Translations under genes and position numbers: made by a program
Part shown: positions 543 through 12,103 of the stretch, one piece after another
Layout: each line of letters starts with the position of its first letter
How positions within the stretch are numbered: position 1 is the stretch's first letter
Origin: a virus
Lineage: Duplodnaviria; Heunggongvirae; Uroviricota; Caudoviricetes
Direction: 5' to 3' (one strand)
IMG/VR virus record: IMGVR_UViG_2617270939_000001
DNA: 12,103 nucleotides
The notes under the pieces: model-generated
The model's input: the letters and a program-made list of their open reading frames with translations, nothing else
Told to the model about the DNA's origin: nothing
Databases searched by the model: none

Positions 543-652
543 ACGCATTCGTTTATTTTCGAACGTGTACATACAAATATGCACAAAAATAATCAAAATT
601 ATTTTCTGAGATGCATTATGATATGAACACCAATTTCGTATAGAGTCTCACT

Positions 653-1243
653 ATGTCTCGAATTTTTGCTTACTGTCGGATATCAACGCTGGATCAGACC
701 ACCGAAAATCAACGCCGGGAAATCGAAAGTGCAGGTTTTAAAATCAAACCTCAGCAAATAATCGAAGAACACATTAGCGGCTCAGCAGCAACCAGTGAGC
801 GTCCTGGTTTTAACCGGTTGCTTGCTCGCCTGAAATGTGGTGATCAATTGATTGTGACAAAACTGGATCGCCTTGGTTGTAATGCAATGGATATCAGGAA
901 AACAGTGGAACAACTGACCGAAACAGGTATCAGAGTGCATTGCTTAGCATTGGGGGGCATTGACCTGACCAGTCCAACAGGAAAAATGATGATGCAAGTA
1001 ATTTCAGCAGTCGCTGAATTTGAACGAGACCTTTTACTTGAACGCACTCATTCCGGGATAGTAAGAGCCCGGGGCGCAGGGAAACGTTTTGGTAGACCAC
1101 CTGTGTTAAATGAAGAACAGAAACAGGTGGTATTCGAACGAATTAAGTCAGGTGTAAGTATAAGTGCCATTGCCCGGGAATTCAAAACCTCGCGGCAAAC
1201 CATTTTAAGAGCCAAAGCAAAACTTCAGACACCTGACATATAA
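653..1243 (+). CDS. pin: Serine recombinase / DNA invertase of the Pin/Gin/Hin/Cin family, 196 aa, apparently intact
   Basis: N-terminal catalytic motif YCRISTLDQ with the active-site Ser; C-terminal HTH ([16 protein letters not shown]). Length and sequence agree with PinQ/PinR of K-12 cryptic prophages as I remember them. Confidence 0.9.
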
Positions 1244-1340
1244 AAAATAATCTCGGTGTGAGATGCTTTACGTCTTCCAAGCCACCTTCCTTGCCGTAAA
1301 TGGAAAGATACATCTAATTATAGAATTTATATGTTTTACC

Positions 1341-1916
1341 CTACGGCAGTGCTGGCCATTCAATATCCTGTGCAGTTGACGTATCAACACGGTTCAGCAA
1401 TACCCGATACTTTTTCCATGCTTCCAGCAACGAGATTTCTTCCTCCGTTGCAATTTCCAGATCTGCAGCATCCTGAAGCGGCGCAATATGCTCACTGGCT
1501 ACCTGCATCAGGCTGTTTTTTGTTTCTTCCGCCTCCCGGATCCGGAACAGTTTTTCTGCTTCCGTATCCTTCACCCAGGCTGTGCCGTTCCACTTCTGAT
1601 ATTCCCCTCCCGGCGATAACCAGGTAACATTTTCCGGTAACGGACCGAGTTCAGAAATAAATAACGCGTCGCCGGAAGCCACGTCATAAACCGTTTTACC
1701 CCGATGATCTTCAACGAGATGCCACGATGCCTCATCACTGTTGAAAACAGCCACGAAGCCTGCCGGAATATCTGGCGGTGCAATATCGGTACTGTTTGCT
1801 GGCAGACCTGTATGAGGCGGAATATATGCGTCACCTTCACCAATAAATTCATTAGTTCCGGCCAGCAGATTATAAATTTTTATGGTCCGTGGTTGTTCAC
1901 TCATTCTGAATGCCAT
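1341..1916 (-). CDS. tfa: Tail fibre assembly protein (Tfa), 191 aa
   Basis: Its start codon (1914-1916) shares one base with the stf stop (1916-1918), TAATG on the coding strand. Protein is TfaQ/TfaR-like. Convergent with pin, as in Rac and Qin. Confidence 0.85.
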
Positions 1917-3904
1917 TATGCAAGCCTCACAATATAGTTAAATGCGATGTTTTTGACGGTGTTTTCCGCGTTACCAGCAGCGTTAACGGTGATGGTATGT
2001 CCATGTGAACCAATCGCAACGGAGTGCGTATGAGCACCAATACCGACAGTATGTGCGTGTGCACCTGCGCTTGCAGCAGTACCCGATACAGAGTGCGTAT
2101 GAGCGCCTGCAGAAGAAGTGTTAACACTGTATTTAGAATAATCAGGTGATCCACTTCCCGGAGCACCACTGGAACCACCTGAAACAAATGTCATCGAATG
2201 GGTATGTGCACCGGCTGAAGCAGCCGTACCGCTAACACTATGGGTATGCGCACCAGTGTTATTCGTGGATTTAGTGCCGTAATCAAACGACGATGTGGTT
2301 TTCGTCCCCAAATCCGTACTGGATACGCTGGCGCTGTGGGTGTGTGATTTAATGCCGTCCTGTTCCTGAGACAATACGGCTCGATCACTGGCGGGCTTGC
2401 CCTTAATCGTCCAGCCACGCATATCAGGGATCACGCCTGACGGATAAGCGGCTGCAAGTTTCGGGTAAGCAGATTTGTCAAAAGTCTGCCCCTGCATCAG
2501 GGCATAACCAGACGGAACGGTATCTGATGGCCACGGGATTGGTGCGCCGACTGGATAAAACTCTGCAGGAGGATGAGCCGAGGTGTAAAGCTGCGCCCAC
2601 GGCGACCAGTTTGCGTCGGTCGTATCCCGTCGTGAACGAATAAATGCCGGAGCATGATCGCCGCTGGTTCCACTCCAGCCAATAAGTAACTCACCCTCTC
2701 CTACTGCGGTTACACCAGTGAGATGAAGCACATTACCATAGGTTGTTGGGTAGCCATTGTTGTATGCCTCATACATCTGAATGCCTGGTGTACCCTTTGC
2801 GCTCCCACTTAATGCCGTAACACGGTTTCTGGATACTAACGTATTAATATTTATATCGCTGGAACCATCAAATTTAACTCCATTTATATTTATCGCATTT
2901 TGTAACTTGGTTGCTGTCAATGCGTTACCGTTCAGACTTGCGGACAGTTTGGTTCCAATAACCAGTTCGCCGGTTGCGTTATCAATAGCAAACGGTCTTA
3001 ATGTATTCCAGCCACCATAAACATCACCTTGATTGGTAAGCAGCAGGTAAGTTTTAGCGCCATCATTACGCCATAATGCACCATACTCCCCACCTATCAT
3101 TCGAATCTGATTACCACCACGCGCTACAATTTCGTCTGTGGCAAAAAGTTTTTTGCACGACAAGTTATCGTTAACGATTAACGAATGAGACTCATAAAAA
3201 CCACGCCCACTCTTAAAATCAAGGATAACGTCCGCCGCGATACATTCAGTCGCCGGATTTGTTGCCCCAAACTTATAGGTCGTATCATTAACAACGAGAT
3301 CAGCACCAGGTGCGGATATTGACAGGCCATCTTCGATAAACGCAAAAACAGGGAAAGCAGCGCCATCAACATAGAACACAGAGCGCAAATCATCGCCCTT
3401 ATTACTCATCATTATTGAGTGGATGGCTCGTTCATTGTTTTGATATTGCCAGAACATTCCATAAGCATAACGCCCCCTGTCAGTCCAGCCACCAGGCATA
3501 ACAAATCCGTTAAACTCGCAGTTATTCATCGGATCGCCTGCGGTTCGCGTTGCCGTGGTGATAATGACCCTTGATGCCAGTTCGCTTACTGAGCCAGCAG
3601 AACGCATAACAGCAACAGGGTAATATTTTCCAGATGTTGCACCTGCAGGAGCGTTAACCCGCACATAACGCATACCACGCTTATCAGCAAAGTCTGTTTT
3701 ACTGACCGCGTTAATGTTGTTCAGGAAGCGTCCCTTATCGGGTATATCAGCGCCGTTCTGGTCTTTCTGCAGACGTTTCTCTGCATTGTCATAGGCTGCT
3801 TTTACTGCCTTTGGCGTTGCCGCCAGCGTTTCAGACGTGCTGTTGGTCGCACTGCTGAGCTGTACTATCCCCTTTTTCGTCGTGCTCGCATCCTCAAGCG
3901 CCAC
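1916..3904 (-). CDS. stf: Side tail fibre protein (Stf), C-terminal portion only; the frame is open up to about 4294 but has no ATG, and homology to lambda Stf begins about 4230
   Basis: Translation matches the lambda Stf middle and C-terminus ([35 protein letters not shown] … [14 protein letters not shown] … [31 protein letters not shown]). Upstream in the same frame (3905-4230) is the Ala/Ser/Thr-rich repeat typical of Stf. The 3904 start in the ORF track is a GTG (Val in SAVALED), not a true start. Confidence 0.8.
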
Positions 3905-4665
3905 GGCGGATGCAATATCCTCTGCCCGTTTTGCTGCTGTCTCGGCGCGCGTTGCCGCGGATTCCGCCGTACTTTTGCTCTGAGCTGCCGCCGTCGCACT
4001 GCCAGCTGCCTCTGTCGCCTTCGTGGATGCCGTCGTGGCGCTGCCCTTCGCTGCTGACGCCTGTCTGGTCGCCTCATCTTTTGAAGCAGACGCCGATGAT
4101 GCCGATGACGCCGCCGAACTGGCGGACGATGCCGCTGCCGTTTTTGAGGATTCTGCACGGGTTTCCGACGCTTTCGCGTTCGTTTCGGATGTCTTCGCTG
4201 CGGAAGCTGACCTCGCTGCTGCACTGGCCTGTTTTCCAGTTCCGGAAAACGCCGCTGCACCGACAGGGGGATCCCGTCGAGAATACTGGCAATTTCACCT
4301 GCGATCCGCGACAGCACGAAAGTACAGAATGCGGTTTCCACCACTTCAGCGGAGTCTCTGGCATTTTTCAGCTCCTGTGCGTCGGCCTGCGCACGCGTAA
4401 GTCGATGGCGTTCGTACTCAATAGTCCCTGGCTGGAGATCTGTCTCGCTGGCCCGCCGCAGTTCTTCAACTTCCCGGCGCAGCTTTTCGTTCTCAATTTC
4501 AGCATCCCTTTCGGCATACCATCTTATAACGGCGGCAGAGTCATAAAGCACCTCATTACCCTTGCCACCGCCTCGCAGAACGGGCATTCCCTGTTCCTGC
4601 CAGTTCTGAATGGTACGGATACTCGCACCGAAAATGTCAGCCAGCTGCTTTTTGTTGACTTCCAT
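3865..4665 (-). CDS. nohA: Terminase small subunit Nu1 homologue (NohA-like): 146 N-terminal codons are Nu1, then about 120 codons of out-of-frame stf DNA (deletion fusion, probably non-functional)
   Basis: First 146 aa ([29 protein letters not shown]…[12 protein letters not shown]) are nearly identical to lambda Nu1, including the wHTH. After codon 146 (about 4230) the protein becomes an Arg/Pro/Gln-rich tail, which is the Ala-rich stf repeat DNA read in the wrong frame. Confidence 0.8.
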
Positions 4666-4900
4666 TGTTCATTCCACGGCCAAAAACAGAGAAAGGAAAC
4701 GACAGAGGCCCAAAAGTTCGTTTTCAGCACCTGTCGTTTCCTTTCTTTTCAGGGGGTATTTTAAATAAAAACATTAAGTTACGACGAAGAAGAACGGAAA
4801 CGCCTTAAACCGGAAAATTTTCATAAATAGCGAAAACCCGCGAGGTCGCCGCCCCGTAACCTGTCGGATCGCCGGAAAGGACCCGCAAAATGATAATAAT
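4666..4900 (-). other. Intact lambda-type cohesive-end site: cosB (between Nu1 start and cosN), cosN (4843-4854), cosQ side (about 4855-4895)
   Basis: The minus strand reads …CCGACAGGTTACG|GGGCGGCGACCTCGCGGGTTTTCGCTATTTATGAAAATTTTCCGGTTTAAGGCG…, which is the lambda right end joined to the lambda left end with the 12-nt cohesive sequence GGGCGGCGACCT, directly upstream of the Nu1 start (ATG 4665-4663). Confidence 0.85.
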
Positions 4901-5053
4901 TATCATCTACATGTCACAACGTGCATCTACGCCATCAAACCACGTCAAATAATCAATTATGACGCAGGTATCGTATTAATTGATCTGCATCAACTTAACG
5001 TAAAAACAACTTCAGACAATACAAATCAGCGACACTGAATACGGGACAACCTC

Positions 5054-5287
5054 ATGTCAACGAAGAACAGAACCCGCAGAACAACAACCCGCAACATCCG
5101 CTTTCCTAACCAAATGATTGAACAAATTAACATCGCTCTTGAGCAAAAAGGGTCCGGGAATTTCTCAGCCTGGGTCATTGAAGCCTGCCGCCGGAGACTG
5201 TGCTCAGAAAAAAGAGTTTCTTCTGAAGCAAACAAAGAAAAGAGTGACATTACTGAATTGCTCAGAAAACAGGTCAGACCAGATTGA
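5054..5287 (+). CDS. Small basic protein, 77 aa, predicted ribbon-helix-helix DNA-binding fold (YnfO-like by position)
   Basis: Basic N-terminus (KNRTRRTTTRN), then a beta-strand-like IRFPNQ and two helices (MIEQINIALEQ / FSAWVIEACRRRL), resembling Arc/MetJ/CopG-type RHH proteins. Lies between cos and ydfO, where ynfO sits in K-12 Qin. Confidence 0.6.
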   Translation: MSTKNRTRRTTTRNIRFPNQMIEQINIALEQKGSGNFSAWVIEACRRRLCSEKRVSSEANKEKSDITELLRKQVRPD

Positions 5288-5344
5288 AGCAATTTAGATA
5301 ATCGTGCAGACTACGCCCCCTCATATCACATGGAAGGTTTATCT

Positions 5345-5755
5345 ATGGATCAGGTAGTCATTTTTAAACAAATATTTGATAAAGTTCGAAACGATTTAAA
5401 CTATCAATGGTTTTATTCTGAGCTAAAACGTCACAATGTCTCACATTACATTTACTATTTAGCCACAGAGAATGTTCATATTGTATTAAAAAATGATAAT
5501 ACAGTGTTATTAAAGGGCCTAAAAAACATTGTGTCTGTCAAATTTTCAAAGGATAGGCATCTTATAGAAACGACCTCTAATAAGCTGAAATCCAGAGAGA
5601 TCACATTTCAGGAATACAGAAGAAACCTTGCTAAAGCAGGAGTTTTTCGGTGGGTTACAAATATCCACGAACAAAAAAGATATTACTATACCTTTGATAA
5701 TTCATTACTATTTACTGAAAGCATCCAGAAAACTACACAGATCTTACCACGCTAA
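5345..5755 (+). CDS. ydfO: DUF1398-family prophage protein YdfO-like, 136 aa (the ORF track begins at an upstream ATG, 5330)
   Basis: A GGAAGG Shine-Dalgarno lies 7 nt before ATG 5345. Sequence and length agree with K-12 YdfO as I recall it. Confidence 0.7.
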
Positions 5756-5857
5756 ACCATAACGTCCGGCTTCTCTCACTCCTGAGCCGGACTGCATTGG
5801 TTTAATAAAAACCATCAACAATTGTGATTTAGATATTCGGAACCATTCAAATATAAC

Positions 5858-5880
5858 AAAACCCCGTAAAAACGAGGTTT
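5858..5880. terminator. Candidate bidirectional rho-independent terminator between ydfO (+) and gnsB (-)
   Basis: Imperfect hairpin AAACCcCG-taaaaa-CGaGGTTT with T-rich flanks on both strands. Stem has a mismatch. Confidence 0.35.
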
Positions 5881-5906
5881 ATGGATAAATTTTATTATTG
5901 AATACA

Positions 5907-6080
5907 TCAGATTAAATTAATCTTGACATCATAGCTTTCAAGACCCGTCATTTTTTCCCGTGCGGTAAACTGAATACTGGTAACTTCTTTCCCGGTCTTT
6001 TTCTTAAGTTCAATAATTTTTTTTGTTATATATTCAGAAATATCTGCTTCTGCTTTTGTTTTTAAGTTTTCAATATTCAT
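5907..6080 (-). CDS. gnsB: GnsB, 57 aa; absent from the ORF track because it is under 60 aa
   Basis: Manual reverse-complement translation gives MNIENLKTKAEADISEYITKKIIELKKKTGKEVTSIQFTAREKMTGLESYDVKINLI, stop TGA at 5907-5909. AAGAGGAAATG precedes the start (tandem ATGs at 6083 and 6080). Confidence 0.8.
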   Translation of the reverse strand: MNIENLKTKAEADISEYITKKIIELKKKTGKEVTSIQFTAREKMTGLESYDVKINLI

Positions 6081-6251
6081 CATTTCCTCTTTTAGTCTGT
6101 TATGACTTTCCAGTTACACAGTAAGTCGATTATATGGTGCAAACGTGTAAAAGATAAGATGAAACATCGCAATAATCAACATACGATAGTCTAAATTTTA
6201 CACAAACAGACAAAGAGAATTTTCCTGAATTATCAATGCAATAGCATCAAA

Positions 6252-6482
6252 TCAACTCAAGAGCCTTATTGCTGCTTCCAGAATTTCTTCTGAAGTAACA
6301 TGTCGATCCGCGGCTACATAAATGACTTTATGATCTCCGGTCAGAGATGGAAACCCTGCGGCCATTACAGTAAGGTGTGTTTTTTCGCCATTTGGATATT
6401 CACGCATGATGGTGTTAACTCCAGTCATCGCTGGCACTACCACTGCTGGTTCAGAGTTAAAAAAAACTATGATTTTTTTCAT
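6252..6482 (-). CDS. Small hypothetical protein, 76 aa from MKKIIVFF (track ORF extends to a further upstream ATG at 6524); at the position of the cold-shock-induced ynfN in Qin
   Basis: Clean ORF in the AT-rich cargo block, same strand as the flanking gnsB and cspI. Start is ambiguous and the SD is weak. I do not recognise the sequence with confidence. Confidence 0.5.
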   Translation of the reverse strand: MKKIIVFFNSEPAVVVPAMTGVNTIMREYPNGEKTHLTVMAAGFPSLTGDHKVIYVAADRHVTSEEILEAAIRLLS

Positions 6483-6523
6483 GATGTTACCGTAGTATGT
6501 GAGTATCCATCGAATAGACACCA

Positions 6524-6560
6524 AGCAAAAAAGCTCCCGAAGGAGCCTTCATTTTCACTT
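6524..6560. terminator. Candidate terminator/attenuator hairpin between cspI and the downstream small ORF
   Basis: GCTCC-cgaa-GGAGC, a 5-bp GC stem with a GNRA-like loop, flanked by an A run (6524-6532) and T-rich sequence (6551-6565). Stem is short. Confidence 0.3.
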
Positions 6561-6753
6561 TTTTAAATCCAACGACAGACGGCTGGCATTTAAGTATTGT
6601 GAAATATTATCAAATGTAATCATCATTGATTTACAAAAGATACATTTTGCCCCGAAAGGATTCATGTCAGAAACATCAAAAGATGATGTTCTATACTGGG
6701 AACCATGACAACACGGGCATCTAAAGTGAATATGGTTTGTAATATTGTCTACC

Positions 6754-6966
6754 TCAAAGCGCCACTACATGAACAGCGGCAGGACCTTTAGGTCCGTTCT
6801 CAATACCAAATTCAACTTCCTGATTCTCAGTTAATGTTTTGAAATCGTTGCTCTGAATTGCTGAGAAATGGACAAACACATCTTTGCTGCCATCTTTCGG
6901 CGTGATGAAACCAAAACCTTTTTCAGGGTTAAACCATTTCACTAAACCAGTCATTTTGTTAGACAT
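6754..6966 (-). CDS. cspI: Cold-shock protein CspI (CspA family), 70 aa
   Basis: [70 protein letters not shown] carries RNP1 (KGFGFI) and RNP2 (VFVHF). Confidence 0.9.
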
Positions 6967-7098
6967 AATTATTACCTTTTGAAGAAATTAGCCCTTGGGC
7001 AGAATGGTCCGAAAAAAAATATCAGAGAGAAAAACCAACAAGGAAATCTCAAGAGGTACAAATAATAAAATTATAACAATGACTGCTTCAGATAAATT

Positions 7099-7146
7099 TG
7101 TAACAAACCAGAACACCATTAACGCATGATTAACCACCCATAGCAA
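7099..7146 (-). promoter_or_regulatory. Predicted cspI promoter (-35 TTGCTA 7146-7141, 17-bp spacer, -10 GTTAAT 7123-7118) and cold-box-like 5' UTR start (GGTTTGTTACA, 7109-7099)
   Basis: Same layout as the cspB promoter in this window, and similar to the cspA promoter (TTGCAT/CTTAAT) followed by a GGTTTGACGTACAGAC cold box, as I recall it. Predicted 5' UTR about 144 nt. Confidence 0.45.
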
Positions 7147-7328
7147 GGATTACTTTTGTAAAGAAAAACACAGCAATGAAAGAATAGCTTTATTTATTAA
7201 TAAAACGTGTCATTCTGATTAAGACCTTTTATCTTACCCTTAAGATTTCAGGAATTTTGGCTCATGGAAGAGTCCTTTTTATTTAAATTTTACATTCCGC
7301 GATGTAAATGTTCCGATTTAATATTACC

Positions 7329-8662
<1,334 letters not shown>

Positions 8663-8666
8663 TGGA

Positions 8667-8882
8667 TTATTCTCCTCTCGCAGCCTTACGCCTGTCTTCT
8701 TTAATCTTGAAATAAAGATTTGTCAGATACGTCAGCAGGCCAAAAACCAGGCTACCCAGCACACCGATTGCAGCCCACTGTGACGGAGTTACTTTATCGA
8801 GTAACTGCAATGCCCAGAAACCAGCATTACCCGCCGATGTGCCATAGGCAACACCTGTTGTTAACTTATCCATTGATTTCAT
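8667..8882 (-). CDS. essQ: Class II holin / pinholin, phage 21 S-like, 71 aa, with dual-start motif MKSM
   Basis: [71 protein letters not shown] has two TM segments and is very similar to S21 as I recall it. GGTGAGGAT SD before ATG 8882. The track ORF's 25-codon upstream extension is not supported. Confidence 0.85.
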
Positions 8883-9101
8883 ATCCTCACCCCGATGTAC
8901 ACGGATGGTGCAATATGTTTGAAAAGATCGGAGTCTACGGGGTAGTTTTGACAGCACACGTTGTTCTCAACGGCGCTAAAAAAACATACACATTAAAAAT
9001 GTGGGTAATTATTTTGAAAGAAAGTCATATATAAAATAATAATACGAGAAATGTTTTCATATTTAGTGTACTGTATACGGCCATTTATACAGGAAAAGCC
9101 T

Positions 9102-9272
9102 ATGTCAGAACGTAAAGACTCAAAATCACGCCGTAATTATCTCGTTAAATGTTCCTGCCCAAACTGCACCCAAGAGTCAGAACACAGTTTTTCAAGAGTA
9201 CAGAAAGGTGCCCTTTTGATCTGCCCTCATTGCAACAAAGTATTCCAGACAAATCTTAAAGCTGTAGCCTGA
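9102..9272 (+). CDS. Small zinc-ribbon protein, 56 aa, of the kind described as YnfQ/YmcF-type small proteins next to csp genes
   Basis: AGGAAAA SD before ATG 9102. Two CxxC pairs (CSCPNC … CPHC). Antisense to the late lysis operon. The upstream part of the track ORF (from 9051) lacks an SD. Confidence 0.6.
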   Translation: MSERKDSKSRRNYLVKCSCPNCTQESEHSFSRVQKGALLICPHCNKVFQTNLKAVA

Positions 9273-9327
9273 TTGATTTTATTAGTAACAAGTATTTTTT
9301 ATATTTTAATAATATATTTAAAGCAGA

Positions 9328-9354
9328 TAATAAAAAACCCGCCTGAGCGGGTTT
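9328..9354 (-). terminator. Rho-independent terminator acting on the minus strand (downstream of cspB)
   Basis: Perfect 8-bp stem AAACCCGC-ctga-GCGGGTTT (9335-9354), followed on the minus-strand transcript by a U run (plus-strand A run 9328-9337). Confidence 0.7.
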
Positions 9355-9635
9355 GAGATTGTGGTGCTTTTTGTGGGAGTCATCCACTTACGCACTTTGT
9401 TTTGCGATGCCAGCAGTTAGCTTCTGCTGTGAAACTATTCATGCAGCAAACCTGCACTTCACCACAATGGTTAGCATACTTTTCCTGATTAAGATTTTGC
9501 CAAATATGCTGGCCATTGTTTCATGTATTGGACCTCCTTACTTTTTATTAAAGAGATCCAATATTCACTACTCTGTCCGTATCTCTACTCAGGCATCAGC
9601 CTTCTTCGTTATCGTATACAGACGAGCGATGAATT

Positions 9636-9851
9636 TTAATCAGTAATGATGACATTTGCTGCTGCAGGACCTTTAGCACCACTCTCTATAGAGAAGGTAA
9701 CCTTTTGACCTTCAAATAAGGTTCGATAATTATCATTCTGAATCGCAGAAAAATGCACAAACACATCTTTACTACCATCAACAGGAGAAATAAAGCCGAA
9801 ACCTTTATCAGCGTTAAACCATTTTACTAAACCAGTCATTTTATTTGACAT
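9636..9851 (-). CDS. cspB: Cold-shock protein CspB (CspA family), 71 aa
   Basis: [67 protein letters not shown]… with RNP1 and RNP2 motifs. AAGGAA SD. Confidence 0.9.
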
Positions 9852-9993
9852 TCTACATTCCTTAACTTGAGCCTTTCGGCATAAATGGTTTGCATAACAG
9901 AAACGACTTCGTACTTAATTGGAGAGACTCAAAGAAGGAATAAGTGAATAACACCTGAAATGAGAACTGCTTTAGTAAACTACTTCGTATATC

Positions 9994-10047
9994 GTCTGTT
10001 CTTCAAACCGACGCAGTCATTAACTCATAGTTGAACATATGAAGCAA
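9994..10047 (-). promoter_or_regulatory. Predicted cspB promoter (-35 TTGCTT 10047-10042, 17-bp spacer, -10 GTTAAT 10024-10019) and cold box at the 5' UTR start (CGGTTTGAAGAACAGAC, about 10010-9994)
   Basis: Minus strand reads TTGCTT-n17-GTTAAT-gactgcgt-CGGTTTGAAGAACAGACGA…AAAGCAG, closely paralleling the cspA promoter and cold box as I recall them. Predicted 5' UTR about 159 nt (10010 to 9852). Confidence 0.55.
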
Positions 10048-10149
10048 TGTTTATTTTAGACATCCAGCCACCTTCAACCCTATCAAAAAAGTAGTTTTCT
10101 CCAGGAACGTGTGTATGGTGCACCAGGTTATCAGTATTAAGGAGTTTTT

Positions 10150-10358
10150 CTGTCCCCTAAAATGACAGGAATTGTCAAAAACTTTGACTACAAAAGCAGC
10201 AAAGGTCTTATATTCCCATCCGATGGCGTATCGATGCCCAGCTTCACGTTTCAGCTCTCAATCTTCGAGATGCAGAAGAAATTACCACAGGATTACGCGT
10301 GGAATTTTGCCGGATAAATGGTTCGCATGGACCTTCAACTGCCAATGTTTATCCCGGG
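10150..10358 (+). pseudogene. cspF: cspF-like cold-shock gene remnant: start codon position is CTG, one frameshift, and no stop at the expected end
   Basis: TAAGGAG SD (10138-10144) sits 5 nt before CTG 10150, where ATG is expected. Frame 1 from ATG 10162 gives [22 protein letters not shown], then homology resumes in another frame (…[12 protein letters not shown]…[21 protein letters not shown]) after a one-base loss near 10227. That frame runs on through the terminator. Confidence 0.6.
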
Positions 10359-10395
10359 ATGAGATTCAATATCTCTATTGCCCCATTTAAAGCAC

Positions 10396-10430
10396 AAAAA
10401 CCCGCTTATAAGCGGGTTTTCTACTTTTTT
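10396..10430. terminator. Strong bidirectional rho-independent terminator; candidate tR' of the Q-dependent late transcript
   Basis: Perfect 9-bp stem AAACCCGCT-tata-AGCGGGTTT (10398-10419) with an A run before and a T run after, so U tracts follow the hairpin on both strands. About 110 nt downstream of the Q stop on the minus strand. Confidence 0.75.
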
Positions 10431-10526
10431 CTAAACGTCGGATACACAAAGCCCATCGTTGAGAAAATCTTATCCATGTTTTTTGAAAAATGCAAACATC
10501 ATGTCGCCATCTTCAGCAAAAATCAT

Positions 10527-11279
10527 TTATCTCGTCACCTTCCTCAATTGCGCTTCCGCGTATGCTTCTTCCTGCCAGCACTTTGTTACCAGTTTACCAA
10601 TGACGTCCGCATACCCCTTATACCACTGATAATCGGTCAGGTCTGGTACCAGCTTCTGGACATGACGTCGTGCCAGCGTGGTCGGTAAACGACTAAACCG
10701 GTTTCCATTACAACGCCCACAAATCTTATATACCGGTACGCCATGAAACCGGGTTCTTTTTTCATCCAGAACAATCCCTTTACCCTTACACCCCCTGCAC
10801 GCTGTGCTGACTTCGCCCTTACCATGGCAATGCTGACATAGTTCCTTCACCCATTCTTCCTTGATTACAGATTCCCCGCGTCTGTAGTGTTTCACCACTT
10901 CGCGCAATACATTATAAAATCCCGTACCTGAACAATGCTCACAGCGAGCCTTACTTGCCGCAGACCTGGAGTAATCAGCAAAGGCAAAATTCACAAGGTA
11001 AGGAATAATCTGTAACCGGATTTCTTCACTCAATTTGTTCAATGTCGGGTTATCCAGTGCCATCGCGTAATTTAGCAGGCCTTCAATCGCAAACTGAGGG
11101 TCCTGAACACCAACTTTTGCCAGAAATAAGGCCAACCCAAGTGGTGCTTTCGACTGCACCATCCCCTGCGCTGCCATTACATCCGTAATTGTTAAACAAC
11201 CGGTGCCTGTCGCTGGAGCGTCATCGCTCAATTTTGGAGATTTTGGGGAGTAATATTTTGGTAAGGCTTCAAGGTTCAT
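10527..11279 (-). CDS. quuQ: Late-gene antiterminator Q, 250 aa from [10 protein letters not shown] (the track ORF's 65-codon N-terminal extension overlaps the upstream gene and is rejected)
   Basis: GGAGAA SD before ATG 11279. Four Cys pairs ([30 protein letters not shown]), a zinc-binding pattern. Sequence and length agree with K-12 QuuQ/QuuD-type Q proteins as I recall them. Confidence 0.8.
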
Positions 11280-11292
11280 GCTCGTTCTCCAC

Positions 11293-11836
11293 TTACGCCA
11301 GTACGCCAGTTGCCAGCGCGCGATCGATAAAACGAAATACCAGCTCCAGTTGGGAGCCATACTTCTCTTCAAATGCCACTGTATCCGTATGCAGCTCGTT
11401 GTGATGCTTTCTGCACAAAGGCAACACAAAGAGATCATGTGCTTTTGTTCCCATTCCGCCCTGCCCGTGACCAATCAGATGATGCGGATCGTCGGCTGGC
11501 ATACCGCAGCAAGCACACGGCTGTGTCTTAACCCAACGTGTGTATTTCTCCTTAACCCAGCGGCGACGTTTAGGCAGCTTCATGAAAGATTCCGGAGACT
11601 CTGGATCAACGGTGATGATTACCACCGTCTTTTCCTGTGGTGGTTTTTGTTGCTGGTGGGCGTAAGGCAACGGTGCAAGATTTTTTGTGCGTTGTTTCAA
11701 TATGCTGGTGGCGGTCTGCTCTCCCGGTACGATGTCGCTTTCGCGGTACACCGAGCAGATTTTTTCCGCTGGTAATCCCAGCGAACGACGCGATACAGCC
11801 TCAGGTAGTGCATCCACCTGAATCGCCACGGATAAT
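11293..11836 (-). pseudogene. ydfU: YdfU-like (DUF968) gene, C-terminal part only; N-terminus replaced by an IS3-family insertion
   Basis: C-terminal region carries an HNH-like Cys/His motif (PCACCGMPADDPHHLIGHGQGGMGTKAHDLFVLPLCRKHHNELH) and ends 13 nt before the Q start. Upstream, the same DNA in another frame encodes the end of the transposase, so the first about 40 codons of the track ORF are IS-derived. Exact junction not determined. Confidence 0.55.
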
Positions 11837-12103
11837 CTAGACACTTCCGAGCCGTTGATAATACTGGTTTTCATATTCTGTCGGTGACATCTGTTCGCTA
11901 GAACCATGCCGACGCTTACTGTTATAAAACATTTCGATGTAATCAAAAATATCACTGCGGGCTTCTTCCCGCGTTCCGTAGATCTTTTTCTTTATCCGTT
12001 CACGTTTCAACAACTGGAAAAAACTTTCTGCAACCGCATTATCATGGCAGTTACCGCGACGGCTCATGCTACCCTCCAGGCCGTGTGATTTCAGGAACGA
12101 CTG
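11800..12103 (-). mobile_element. IS3-family insertion sequence, right end and 3' part; approximate inner boundary 11800-11836
   Basis: Transposase 3' end at 11837. The terminal inverted repeat could not be identified because the other end is outside the window. Confidence 0.6.
11837..12103 (-). CDS. IS3-family transposase (OrfB, DDE/rve domain), C-terminal 88 codons; gene continues beyond the right edge
   Basis: Minus-strand frame is open from the window edge to TAG at 11837-11839 (…QSFLKSHGLEGSMSRRGNCHDNAVAESFF…SPTEYENQYYQRLGSV). SRRGNC.DNA is the hallmark around the catalytic Glu of IS3-family transposases. Confidence 0.8.
   Translation of the reverse strand, partial: QSFLKSHGLEGSMSRRGNCHDNAVAESFFQLLKRERIKKKIYGTREEARSDIFDYIEMFYNSKRRHGSSEQMSPTEYENQYYQRLGSV

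Follow-up and report, generated by a model that had tools for sequence, protein, structure and literature searches.

In the window, the whole 12,103-nt stretch of DNA analysed here, the terminase small subunit gene nu1 of a lambdoid prophage is joined directly to the interior of a side tail fibre gene, stf. This junction is very probably the product of a short-homology illegitimate deletion that occurred in one Escherichia coli lineage and left two pseudogene remnants, nohA' and stf'. By gene order and identity, the window belongs to Qin, a defective lambdoid cryptic prophage of E. coli, and covers its late-gene half; it occupies the usual Qin position on the chromosome, beside ydfJ. The whole window is 99.88% identical to a stretch of chromosome NZ_LR536431.1 that adjoins ydfJ and has the order ydfJ-ynfT-ydfK-IS5-pinQ-tfaQ-stf'-nohA'-ynfO-ydfO-gnsB-...-ydfT-ydfU'. 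Exactly the Qin gene order is found there (ydfJ, followed by ynfT-ydfK-pinQ-tfaQ-stf-noh-ynfO-ydfO-gnsB-ynfN-cspI-rzpQ-rrrQ-(ydfR)-ess-cspB-cspF-ydfT-ydfU), and window positions 543–2104 and 4231–11818 are 98–99% identical to K-12 Qin. The features that bear on the junction are as follows.

653–1243, plus strand: pinQ, intact serine invertase gene (Pfam Resolvase and HTH_7; annotation)
1341–1916, minus strand: tfaQ, intact tail fibre assembly gene directly downstream of stf' (Pfam Caudo_TAP, E = 1e-42; annotated in L001 and K-12)
1916–4233, minus strand: stf', the 3' 69% of a lambdoid side tail fibre gene, to its native stop (homology and Pfam)
1916–3904, minus strand: longest start-codon ORF in stf', from GTG 3904, 662 aa, RefSeq/PGAP 'phage tail protein' WP_024262767.1
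3865–4230, minus strand: stf DNA read through in the nu1 frame, 121 codons (45 Arg), with a stop at 3865–3867 (translation)
4231–4233: junction microhomology of 3 nt, minus-strand AAC (plus-strand GTT), which both parents have and of which one copy is retained (three-way alignments and phage-match overlap)
4231–4250: nu1 inverted repeat GTTTTCC-GGAACT-GGAAAAC with palindrome TTCCGGAA, the junction lying inside its 3' arm (read from sequence)
4231–4665, minus strand: nohA', remnant of the terminase small subunit gene nu1, codons 1–145 from ATG 4665 (identity, Pfam and RefSeq)
4295–4297, minus strand: in-frame stop closing the stf frame upstream, within nu1-derived DNA (reading-frame scan)
4690–4890, minus strand: intact lambda-type cos, upstream of nohA' (match to the lambda left end)
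4830–4854: cosN, with the cosB R elements between cosN and the nu1 start (read from sequence)

The junction was placed by three-way, base-level alignments with lambda, K-12 Qin, E. coli 1303 Qin, PhiR42_1 and PhiR34_1, PhiR42_1 serving as the reference for intact nu1 (99.8%) and PhiR34_1 for intact stf (96.5%). An identical junction was obtained from all five. Homology to nu1/nohA extends over minus-strand positions 4800 to 4231, and homology to stf begins at 4233; megablast matches to phages end at 4231 on the nu1 side and at 4233 on the stf side, an overlap of exactly 3 bases. With the break marked by a slash, the parental nu1 reads ...CCGGAACTGGAAAAC/CGACATG and the parental stf ...GCCACTGAAC/AGGCCA, and the window across the junction reads ...CCGGAACTGGAAAAC AGGCCAG. 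Because AAC is common to both parents, any position within these 3 nt could be the break. The 96–99.8% identity on either side of the junction leaves no room for chance. The three-way alignments show no inserted bases, and no insertion sequence (IS), repeat or recombinase-type site was found at the junction. A sequence-only reading had proposed a deletion near 4230 that fuses the N-terminal part of Nu1 to the middle of stf in a different frame and removes everything from the terminase large subunit through the stf 5' end. Every comparison agrees with this: the 3' end of nu1, gene A and the 5' third of stf are absent, and no gene was found to be homologous throughout 4200–4260. Alignment to nu1 and stf, which that reading suggested as a check, supplied the exact breakpoint and the AAC microhomology.

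On the nu1 side, cosN matches the lambda left end at 25 of 25 positions (GGGCGGCGACCTCGCGGGTTTTCGC; chance expectation 0 matches). nohA' shares 99.8% identity with both E. coli 1303 nohA and PhiR42_1 nu1, and 97.2% with lambda nu1. Residues 1–148 of its product match positions 1–148 of the 164 in Pfam model PF07471 (Phage_Nu1, E = 2e-90), and the N-terminal winged-helix DNA-binding domain and the central region of the Nu1 family are both recognizable. A complete Nu1 of ~181 aa, with the gpA-binding C-terminal segment, is not present. Homology stops at codon 145 (Asn, AAC; 435 nt from ATG 4665), where 146 had been read from the sequence, and gene A is absent from the window. RefSeq labels the same stretch of NZ_LR536431.1 'DNA-packaging protein, incomplete, missing C-terminus', and by these comparisons nohA' appears to be a remnant and not a functional Nu1-family member.

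On the other side, stf' retains 2,315 of the 3,351 nt (69%) of the 1303 allele, close to the two-thirds first estimated, and starts at codon 346 of 1116 (1303) or 348 of 1134 (PhiR34_1). It is 97–98% identical to stf of 1303 Qin and 96.5–98% identical to stf of phages PhiR34_1 and Kati. Pfam matches to Phage_fiber_2, Gp34_trimer, Collar and Phage_fiber, together with the tfa chaperone gene tfaQ downstream, mark it as a Stf fibre gene; the N-terminal virion-attachment domain ('prophage tail fiber N-terminal domain') has no Pfam match in stf'. The native start codon is also gone, homology beginning only at codon 346/348. The earlier statement that stf has no start codon is therefore right for the native start but not for the frame as a whole, which runs open from 4294 to its stop at 1916–1918, a length of 792 codons. 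The stretch between 4294 and 3904 holds no ATG, GTG or TTG in the stf frame, and GTG 3904 is the first; the exact 662-aa protein that it opens is present on 87 public contigs.

Translation bears out the claims that stf lies one base out of the nu1 frame and that Nu1 ends in an Arg-rich nonsense tail, which is the Ala/Ser-rich stf segment in a shifted reading. The tail does not correspond to a conserved domain, there being no Pfam match past Nu1 residue 148. Compared with the 1303 stf allele, it carries 1 synonymous and 7 non-synonymous substitutions in the fusion frame and 3 and 5 in the stf frame, a weak test with just 8 differences. Over 1,381 nt of stf, the corresponding counts are 6 and 30 for the fusion frame and 12 and 24 for the stf frame. 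Substitutions relative to the 1303 allele are least synonymous in the off frames, and these counts, with their 8 differences in the tail, give no sign of selection in the Arg-rich fusion frame.

The event would have been a single homology-independent recombination joining nu1, just after nt 433–435, to stf at about nt 1037, with AAC common to the two. It would have removed the 3' end of nu1, gene A, any head and tail genes then remaining and the first third of stf. The nohA pseudogene product would begin with Nu1 residues 1–145, which comprise the parts for DNA binding and oligomerisation but not the C-terminus that binds gpA, and continue with 121 Arg-rich residues, and the stf pseudogene would have lost its promoter-proximal start and virion-attachment N-terminal domain. 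The junction has the form of a microhomology deletion, in that AAC occurs in both parents and is kept once and no IS end, attachment site or crossover site is present. The mechanism was probably short-homology slippage or end joining, without a recombinase. Probably neither remnant has a function of its own. A 3-nt microhomology alone is weak evidence for this mechanism; by our own calculation, a random blunt join is expected to show at least 3 nt about 5% of the time.

Loss of this kind is ordinary. Albertini et al. in 1982 reportedly described deletions in lacI that arose by short-homology-dependent illegitimate recombination or replication slippage, and Glickman and Ripley in 1984 are said to have described deletions associated with palindromes. 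Like the window junction, those deletions share few bases, retain one copy, lack a recombinase site and have an endpoint beside an inverted repeat. The window differs in that its homology is just 3 nt and the event is known from its product alone. Among incomplete prophages it is an established pattern that tail-fibre genes are kept while those for terminase and head are lost (PMC7744054).

One of 5,426 complete E. coli genomes (NZ_LR536431.1) carries the exact junction, and the exact 266-aa fusion ORF occurs on ~38 public contigs (NCBI, ENA and Logan). The exact junction 30-mer had no match in a collection holding one genome per species, a scope that makes this result uninformative. In K-12 MG1655 Qin (nohA-stfQ, b1548/b1547), which shares the prophage, chromosomal locus and flanking genes with the window, a nu1 remnant is likewise out of frame with a 5'-truncated stf that is followed by tfaQ and pinQ. 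The K-12 break, however, falls after nu1 nt 529 (codon 176) and far deeper in stf, leaving a 320-aa stf remnant with a divergent 5' part, whereas the window breaks after nt 433–435 and keeps 772 stf codons. K-12 retains nu1 nt 436–529, absent from the window, and the window retains 2762–4230, absent from K-12; because each keeps DNA that the other has lost, the two deletions are independent. The Qin prophage of E. coli 1303 (NZ_CP009166.1) lies at the same locus and is 99.8% identical on the nohA side and 97–98% on the stf side, but has a complete nohA (181 aa), A', E' and Z' fragments, FI and FII in intact form and an stf of full length (1116 aa). It provides an example of what the deleted interval may have contained. 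Since the K-12 and 1303 Qin junctions differ from that of the window, decay has been independent in each lineage.

Complete, functional counterparts of the genes of which the window keeps only two ends are found in lambda nu1, in Ur-lambda stf and in the viable, ECOR-derived phages PhiR42_1 and PhiR34_1. The late region of PhiR42_1 from Q to nu1 matches that of the window (99% over 4231–11818), but its nu1 and A are intact; PhiR34_1 has the order J-lom-stf(1134 aa)-tfa-pin, with stf-tfa-pin 96.5–98% identical to that of the window. Other nu1-to-tail junctions in E. coli prophages (DLP12-type in TW14425; 20AR0354; B4103-1; ETEC4088; MLI023K1) likewise run from cos-nu1' to stf'-tfa, and two of them use the same nu1 nucleotide as the window. 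They differ in their stf or tail partner positions, in their microhomologies and, in part, in prophage and chromosomal site, and are independent events. The window junction is thus one rare allele among many independent nu1-to-tail deletions.

Two questions about the history of the deletion are (i) how much DNA was lost in the final step and (ii) what initiated it. For the first, a deletion of ~3.8 kb in an already eroded, 1303-like Qin is a plausible alternative, at somewhat less than an even chance, to a single loss of ~20 kb from an intact prophage. The breakpoints are just 3,795 bp apart in 1303 Qin, A, E and Z being already reduced to fragments in that prophage, and the presence of Qin at the same locus in all strains examined implies a long and stepwise decay. 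At 97–98% identity to the window in stf, short of full identity, 1303 is not the direct ancestor, however. An intermediate with the SNPs of the window was not found, and the junction itself is uninformative about the DNA that formerly intervened.

For the second question, the left ends of deletions in lambdoid nu1 are not random. Positions nt 507–510 form the left end of about a quarter of the distinct junctions, with at least 25 different partners, and the window site, nt 433–435, is used by at least five independent junctions including that of the window. The cos-nu1 side is always retained, the partners lie at downstream distances between 53 nt and 21 kb, and each join uses 2–6 nt of microhomology. 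It is possible, though we hold this only tentatively, that the window deletion was begun by a site-specific lesion at a nu1 hotspot (a nuclease nick or break, or polymerase stalling at the GTTTTCC/GGAAAAC hairpin) and that the end was then joined to stf by microhomology. Five further junctions have their nu1 end at nt 433, which falls within the 433–435 ambiguity zone of the window, with differing partners. The following were recorded.

L002: nu1 end at nt 433, partner in stf, 67 nt further on
L007/L032: nu1 end at nt 433, partner in stf, 1.1 kb further on, in a DLP12-type prophage
L014/P0120: nu1 end at nt 433, partner in gene FII
L016/P0119: nu1 end at nt 433

A score-ranked list of Nu1 matches also contains no junctions between residues 146 and 164 and two at 144, and the far stronger site at nt 507–510 shows that such sites exist in nu1. 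On the other hand, nt 433 accounts for only 1 of ~38 distinct junctions in a position-unbiased DNA sample, and L002 and L007 were noticed through their likeness to the query, which introduces an ascertainment bias. The hairpin is also modest: the intact-nu1 inverted repeat folds as DNA at −10.4 kcal/mol (z = −1.9), with 12 of 200 shuffles equally stable, and the junction sequence folds at −14.8 kcal/mol (z = −2.8). No nuclease or motif was identified. That at least four other independent junctions share the nu1 end of the window hints at a site-specific initiating lesion over a purely random event.

More generally, a few nucleotide-precise nu1 positions may repeatedly serve as the left end of independent lambdoid prophage deletions through a directional, site-specific initiating lesion, although we consider this the less probable interpretation. 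The recurrent left ends would then be, again with limited confidence, nt 433, 507–510 (just before the A ribosome-binding site), 690 and 766 from the nu1 start. Candidate lesions include nicking by terminase or another nuclease of a cosN-like TACC^GGGG at nt 509 and structure-induced template switching; the wider cosN-like match, TAC(C)GGGG..GC, spans nt 505–516. Common ancestry of the nt-507 events is excluded by at least 17 nu1 haplotypes, which also occur with intact nu1. As a right endpoint, nt 507–510 was found in 0 of 64 matches, all 64 being divergent intact nu1 alleles. Several known initiators fit poorly. Chi-like sequences (GCTGGATG, 8 nt upstream of nt 507, and ACTGGAAA, at site A) have at least two mismatches to Chi and lie at the wrong distance. 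The gyrase consensus YRTGNYNNY has no match, and for a HUH nick of the phiX174-pC194-IS91 type (AACT(T)GATA) the break is 3 nt off the canonical position. No junction retains an IS, as an IS-mediated adjacent deletion would, and no homing-endonuclease gene inserted at the nu1/A boundary is found among the partners. DNA folding gave no notable structure at site B and, at site A, a hairpin with z of only −1.9. Literature searches turned up no described nu1 deletion hotspot.

The deletion may also have left something useful to the host. Expressed from GTG 3904 or another internal start, the truncated Stf could act with TfaQ, for example by blocking phage receptors, but we regard this as unlikely. 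The 792-codon frame has no stop, tfaQ and pinQ are intact, PGAP annotates the ORF as a protein, and stf' belongs to the late operon that follows Q (ydfT); on the minus strand, the interval from nohA' to stf' yielded no terminator-like site. The e14 fragment StfE2 is reported to block phage receptors, truncated or chimeric Stf proteins of K-12 cryptic prophages reportedly inhibit T2 adsorption (PMC12529663), and degraded prophages are enriched in tail-fibre genes (PMC7744054). Against this, GTG 3904 has a poor ribosome-binding context (GAGGA 13 nt upstream, a poor spacing), no promoter-like site was found near it, and the reading frame that it opens overlaps the upstream nohA' fusion ORF, which is in another frame, by 37 nt. 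Changes relative to 1303 are mostly non-synonymous even in the stf frame, and a recent deletion explains the open frame equally well, given 97–98% identity to functional phage stf. The open frame and intact tfaQ and pinQ would fit a recent origin and selection for stf' alike.

That the adjacent serine invertase PinQ made a site-specific deletion between quasi-crossover sites in nu1 and stf is highly improbable. The intact pinQ lies 2.6 kb from the junction, natural Pin/Gin/Hin crossover sites occur within tail-fibre genes, and nu1 CTGGAAAACC resembles the left half of hixL. In a 12-2-12 alignment, however, the break falls 3–4 nt to the left of the central dinucleotide GA, nothing like a half-site is seen on the stf side (AGGCCAGTGCAG), and other junctions at the same nu1 site have unrelated partner sequences; neither geometry nor partner sequences fit. 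Manual alignment to the Din-family consensus (Pin/Gin/Hin/Cin) found no crossover site in nu1 or stf, and wild-type invertases strongly disfavour deletion between distant sites. An assembly chimera or sequencing artefact is barely conceivable, since the junction is present in a finished chromosome (NZ_LR536431.1) and the fusion ORF on 38 contigs from several sources, and an overlap of 3 nt is much shorter than any assembler k-mer; the survey does include a metagenome contig (L246) that ends in Illumina adapter, showing that such artefacts arise, but nothing of the kind is specific to the window junction.

A short-homology illegitimate deletion remains the preferred explanation, and no observation contradicts a deletion. 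Taken alone, the junction carries little weight, being one further lineage-specific step in the decay of Qin, although at 1 in 5,426 complete genomes it is usable as a clonal marker. Qin has been disarmed independently in the window lineage, in K-12 and in 1303, each time by loss between nu1 and stf and with retention of cos, the lysis and cold-shock cassette, tfa and pin. The stf'-tfaQ and cos-nohA' segments are pieces with which infecting lambdoid phages recombine (PMC3945230), and truncated Stf proteins have a reported role in phage defence (PMC12529663). The nu1 endpoint hotspots, a by-product of this analysis, could outweigh the junction itself in importance. If they are real, a specific molecular process would lie behind prophage inactivation, testable in lambda genetics, and a directional lesion, if true, would be an undescribed route by which lambdoid prophages are disarmed.

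Searched against phage genomes with megablast, the whole window split into two sets of matches with a common meeting point. Lambdoid late regions (Q, holin, lysozyme and Nu1) account for positions 4231–11818, and stf–tfa–invertase modules for 543–4233. Among complete E. coli genomes, a full-length match in one piece to the 901 bases around the junction was found only in NZ_LR536431.1. The window is 99.88% identical to this genome, differing only in bases 1–99, by a 1-nt indel at 8343 and by one SNP. Its annotated gene order is as follows.

Flank outside the prophage: dcp-ydfG-rspR-ydfZ-ydfI-ydfJ, then ynfT
Prophage: ynfT-ydfK-IS5-pinQ-tfaQ-'phage tail protein'-'DNA-packaging protein (incomplete, missing C-terminus)'-ynfO-ydfO-gnsB
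Prophage, continued: gnsB-ynfN-cspI-rzpQ-rrrQ-essD-cspB-cspF-ydfT-ydfU′-IS3

This gene order and the comparison with K-12 identify the window as the cryptic prophage Qin at its usual chromosomal site. Within positions 1–542, about 110 nt upstream of pinQ, lies the end of an inserted IS5-family element that is absent from this place in K-12 and in the less decayed Qin of E. coli 1303. The first 99 bases of the window carry 14 differences from the NZ_LR536431.1 copy, which is otherwise identical. Matches to K-12 Qin and to phages end at 11818, and an IS3-family fragment (11819–12103) truncates ydfU (DUF968; ydfU′, 11294–11830). At 8343, near the rrrQ start, a 1-nt deletion relative to NZ_LR536431.1 gives one 279-aa ORF (7823–8662, minus strand) that joins the ydfR remnant to the lysozyme gene, whether by a real frameshift or through a sequencing error. 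At 10351/10352, 258 bp of K-12 Qin (L003, 12059–12316) are missing, a loss that takes out ynfS entirely and clips a few bases from the end of cspF; cspF is marked as a pseudogene by RefSeq in the matching genome.

On the minus strand, homology to nu1/nohA extends from 4800 down to 4231, with identities of 99.8% to 1303 nohA, 99.6% to K-12 nohA, 97.2% to lambda and 99.8% to phage PhiR42_1. Homology to stf runs from 4233, at 98.1% to the 1303 Qin gene and 96.5% to phage PhiR34_1. The aligned sequences are given below, with a slash at the break.

nu1 parent: ...TTTTCCGGAACTGGAAAAC / CGACATGTT
stf parent: ...GAAGCCACTGAAC / AGGCCA
Window at the junction: ...TTTTCCGGAACTGGAAAACAGGCCAG

The break is exact to the base, with 3 nt (AAC, 4231–4233) common to both parents and no inserted bases. 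The switch of homologies at 4231–4233 confirms the sequence-only reading, which had proposed a deletion joining the Nu1 N-terminus out of frame to the middle of stf. That reading placed the break at Nu1 codon 146, one too high; the last codon is Asn145 (435 nt from ATG 4665). Beyond the junction, as anticipated, the nu1 frame continues one base out of register with stf and reads 121 codons, 45 for Arg, before the stop at 3865–3867. Pfam recognizes Phage_Nu1 at residues 1–148 of the fusion ORF and nothing in the Arg-rich tail, the segment earlier described as nonsense. Of the stf gene 69% is retained, in agreement with the 3′ two-thirds first estimated; the first codon is 346 in the numbering of the 1303 allele (1116 aa) and 348 in that of PhiR34_1 (1134). 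Its frame is open from 4294, with the upstream stop (4295–4297) in nu1-derived DNA. The earlier statement that stf lacks a start codon holds for the native start, which is lost, but not for the internal GTG at 3904, the first ATG, GTG or TTG of the frame. This GTG has GAGGA 13 nt upstream and opens a 662-aa ORF named phage tail protein by PGAP. On the stf remnant Pfam finds fibre repeats, Gp34_trimer and Collar, and no N-terminal domain. With these small corrections, both the observation and its interpretation stand.

The lost interval is about 19.7 kb on the lambda scale (626 to roughly 20,370, the stf coordinate being extrapolated, as the first 174 nt past the junction have no lambda alignment) and only 3,795 bp on that of 1303 Qin. 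The deletion may have been one large step, or it may be the last of several. A PinQ-mediated event (pinQ is adjacent) is rejected, as the break lies 3–4 nt off the central dinucleotide of a hix-like site and stf has no half-site. Because the junction has neither an IS end nor an att-like core nor a crossover site for an invertase, and 3 nt are common to the parents, we infer from the recombination product a short-homology illegitimate recombination, which could have proceeded by replication slippage, template switching or microhomology end joining. On the nu1 side, the break falls in an inverted repeat, GTTTTCC-GGAACT-GGAAAAC, within its 3′ arm; the DNA fold predicted for intact nu1 beats shuffled sequences by only a modest margin (z = −1.9).

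Of 5,426 complete genomes, 1 matches a 101-nt junction-centred probe across the break, and the exact 266-aa and 662-aa ORFs occur on 38 and 87 public contigs, under the names 'terminase small subunit' and 'tail fiber protein', respectively. These records show the junction allele to be real and clonal, and already in public databases. At the same locus in 1303 Qin, nohA is complete and stf full-length, FI and FII are intact, and A, E and Z survive as fragments; K-12 Qin retains nu1 to nt 529 (numbered from the nu1 start) and an stf remnant of only 320 aa. Nu1 nt 436–529 are present in K-12 and missing from the window, while stf DNA at 2762–4230 is present in the window and missing from K-12. 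Since each retains DNA missing from the other, neither allele descends from the other, and Qin has been truncated independently in different lineages. The Qin-type late region is found whole in two viable phages of ECOR origin (cold-shock genes, gnsB, ynfN, ydfO, intact nu1–A and the stf–tfa–pin module); PhiR42_1 has an intact Q-to-nu1–A region and PhiR34_1 an intact J–lom–stf–tfa–pin arrangement. Living phages thus carry the 'host-like' genes of Qin as ordinary cargo.

Packaging function is gone, because Nu1 1–145 lacks the gpA-binding C-terminus and gpA is absent. The Arg-rich tail is a by-product of reading frame: it has no domain and no synonymous excess in its frame. The cos site upstream of nohA′ is intact.

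4690–4890, minus strand: cos region (cosB retained, gpA gone, Nu1 truncated)
4830–4854, minus strand: cosN, 25/25 identical to lambda

A helper phage with a terminase of lambda specificity could in principle cut the chromosome at this cosN. Both cos–nohA′ and stf′–tfaQ are segment types with which infecting lambdoid phages recombine (PMC3945230). No terminator-like site was found between stf′ and nohA′ on the minus strand, nor any promoter-like site belonging to stf′. Lying in the late operon, stf′ could be transcribed, but it lacks a good translation start. A domesticated, functional stf′ is improbable; in its favour, degraded prophages show an enrichment of tail-fibre genes (PMC7744054), and a chimeric e14 Stf fragment made by PinQ-mediated inversion is reported to block T2 adsorption (PMC12529663).

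The nu1 end of the window recurs with different partners in four other junctions, in all of which nt 433 is the last possible nu1 base.

20AR0354: nu1 nt 433, partner stf, 67 nt further on
TW14425: nu1 nt 433, DLP12-type prophage, stf 1.1 kb further on
GCA_012073085: nu1 nt 433, partner gene FII
Logan contig L016: nu1 nt 433

The ambiguity zone of the window (nu1 nt 433–435, in the region of 4231–4235) includes nt 433, and at least four other independent junctions end within these 3 nt. A position-unbiased DNA sample, retrieved by exact match to the first 30 nt of nu1, comprised 244 loci from viral and metagenome contigs, 159 of them collinear with lambda for at least 1 kb. Only one of its about 38 distinct junctions lies at nt 433. 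These data are suggestive of a minor hotspot at nt 433, partly ascertained through similarity to the query.

A second site, nt 507–510, is a solid hotspot, with about 10 distinct junctions in the same sample. It corresponds to lambda 697–700 at the end of nu1 (...GATGAACTGATA / CCGGGGTTGCTGAGTG, A start), a part missing from the window; examples are L012 and L013 (both at 6507), L017, L018, L203, L207 and L216. Downstream partners are between 53 nt and 21 kb away, and TA is the usual microhomology. The nt-507 events are independent, because they are spread over at least 17 nu1 haplotypes, each also found intact. As a right-hand endpoint, nt 507–510 was found in 0 of 64 matches. In a protein search with full-length NohA, nearly all high-identity fusion ORFs with a Nu1 part past residue 143 break right after I169 ('...AALDELI/'); there were no junctions between residues 146 and 164, and two at 144. 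At least 20 different tails follow I169, at lambda positions 751 to 22,390 and all in deletion orientation, in A, B, C, E, FI, Z, V, K, I, J, lom, stf and tfa; the partner site is mostly TA, sometimes ATA, GATA or CTGATA.

Inside gene A, nt 690 (L085/L101) has two distinct junctions and nt 766 (L109/L141/L186) three, the third from outside the sample, with two to three different partners each. Recurrence is also seen on the partner side: one stf sequence, ACCGCGYTGACAGACAATACGCAGGGGG, follows nu1 nt 529 in K-12 Qin (L003, 5840) and nt 690 in contig L101. An apparent junction at nt 748 in L246 (OGUJ01003606.1) runs into AGATCGGAAGAGC, an Illumina adapter, and was left out of the counts as an assembly artefact. 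Accounts of the hotspots by Chi, gyrase, HUH nicking, IS elements or Pin do not fit, and our literature searches found no description of them. The likeness between TACC^GGGGTTGC (also TACC^GGGG) and the nicked half of cosN, TTACG^GGGCGGCG, offers a candidate explanation.

The deletion junction in the window was read correctly and is placed to the base; the cryptic prophage that carries it is well known. The junction is an ordinary scar of a known type, and this new allele is already public and annotated as a partial gene. The one element that might surprise a specialist is that its nu1 end may be one of several base-precise sites at which deletions repeatedly stop.
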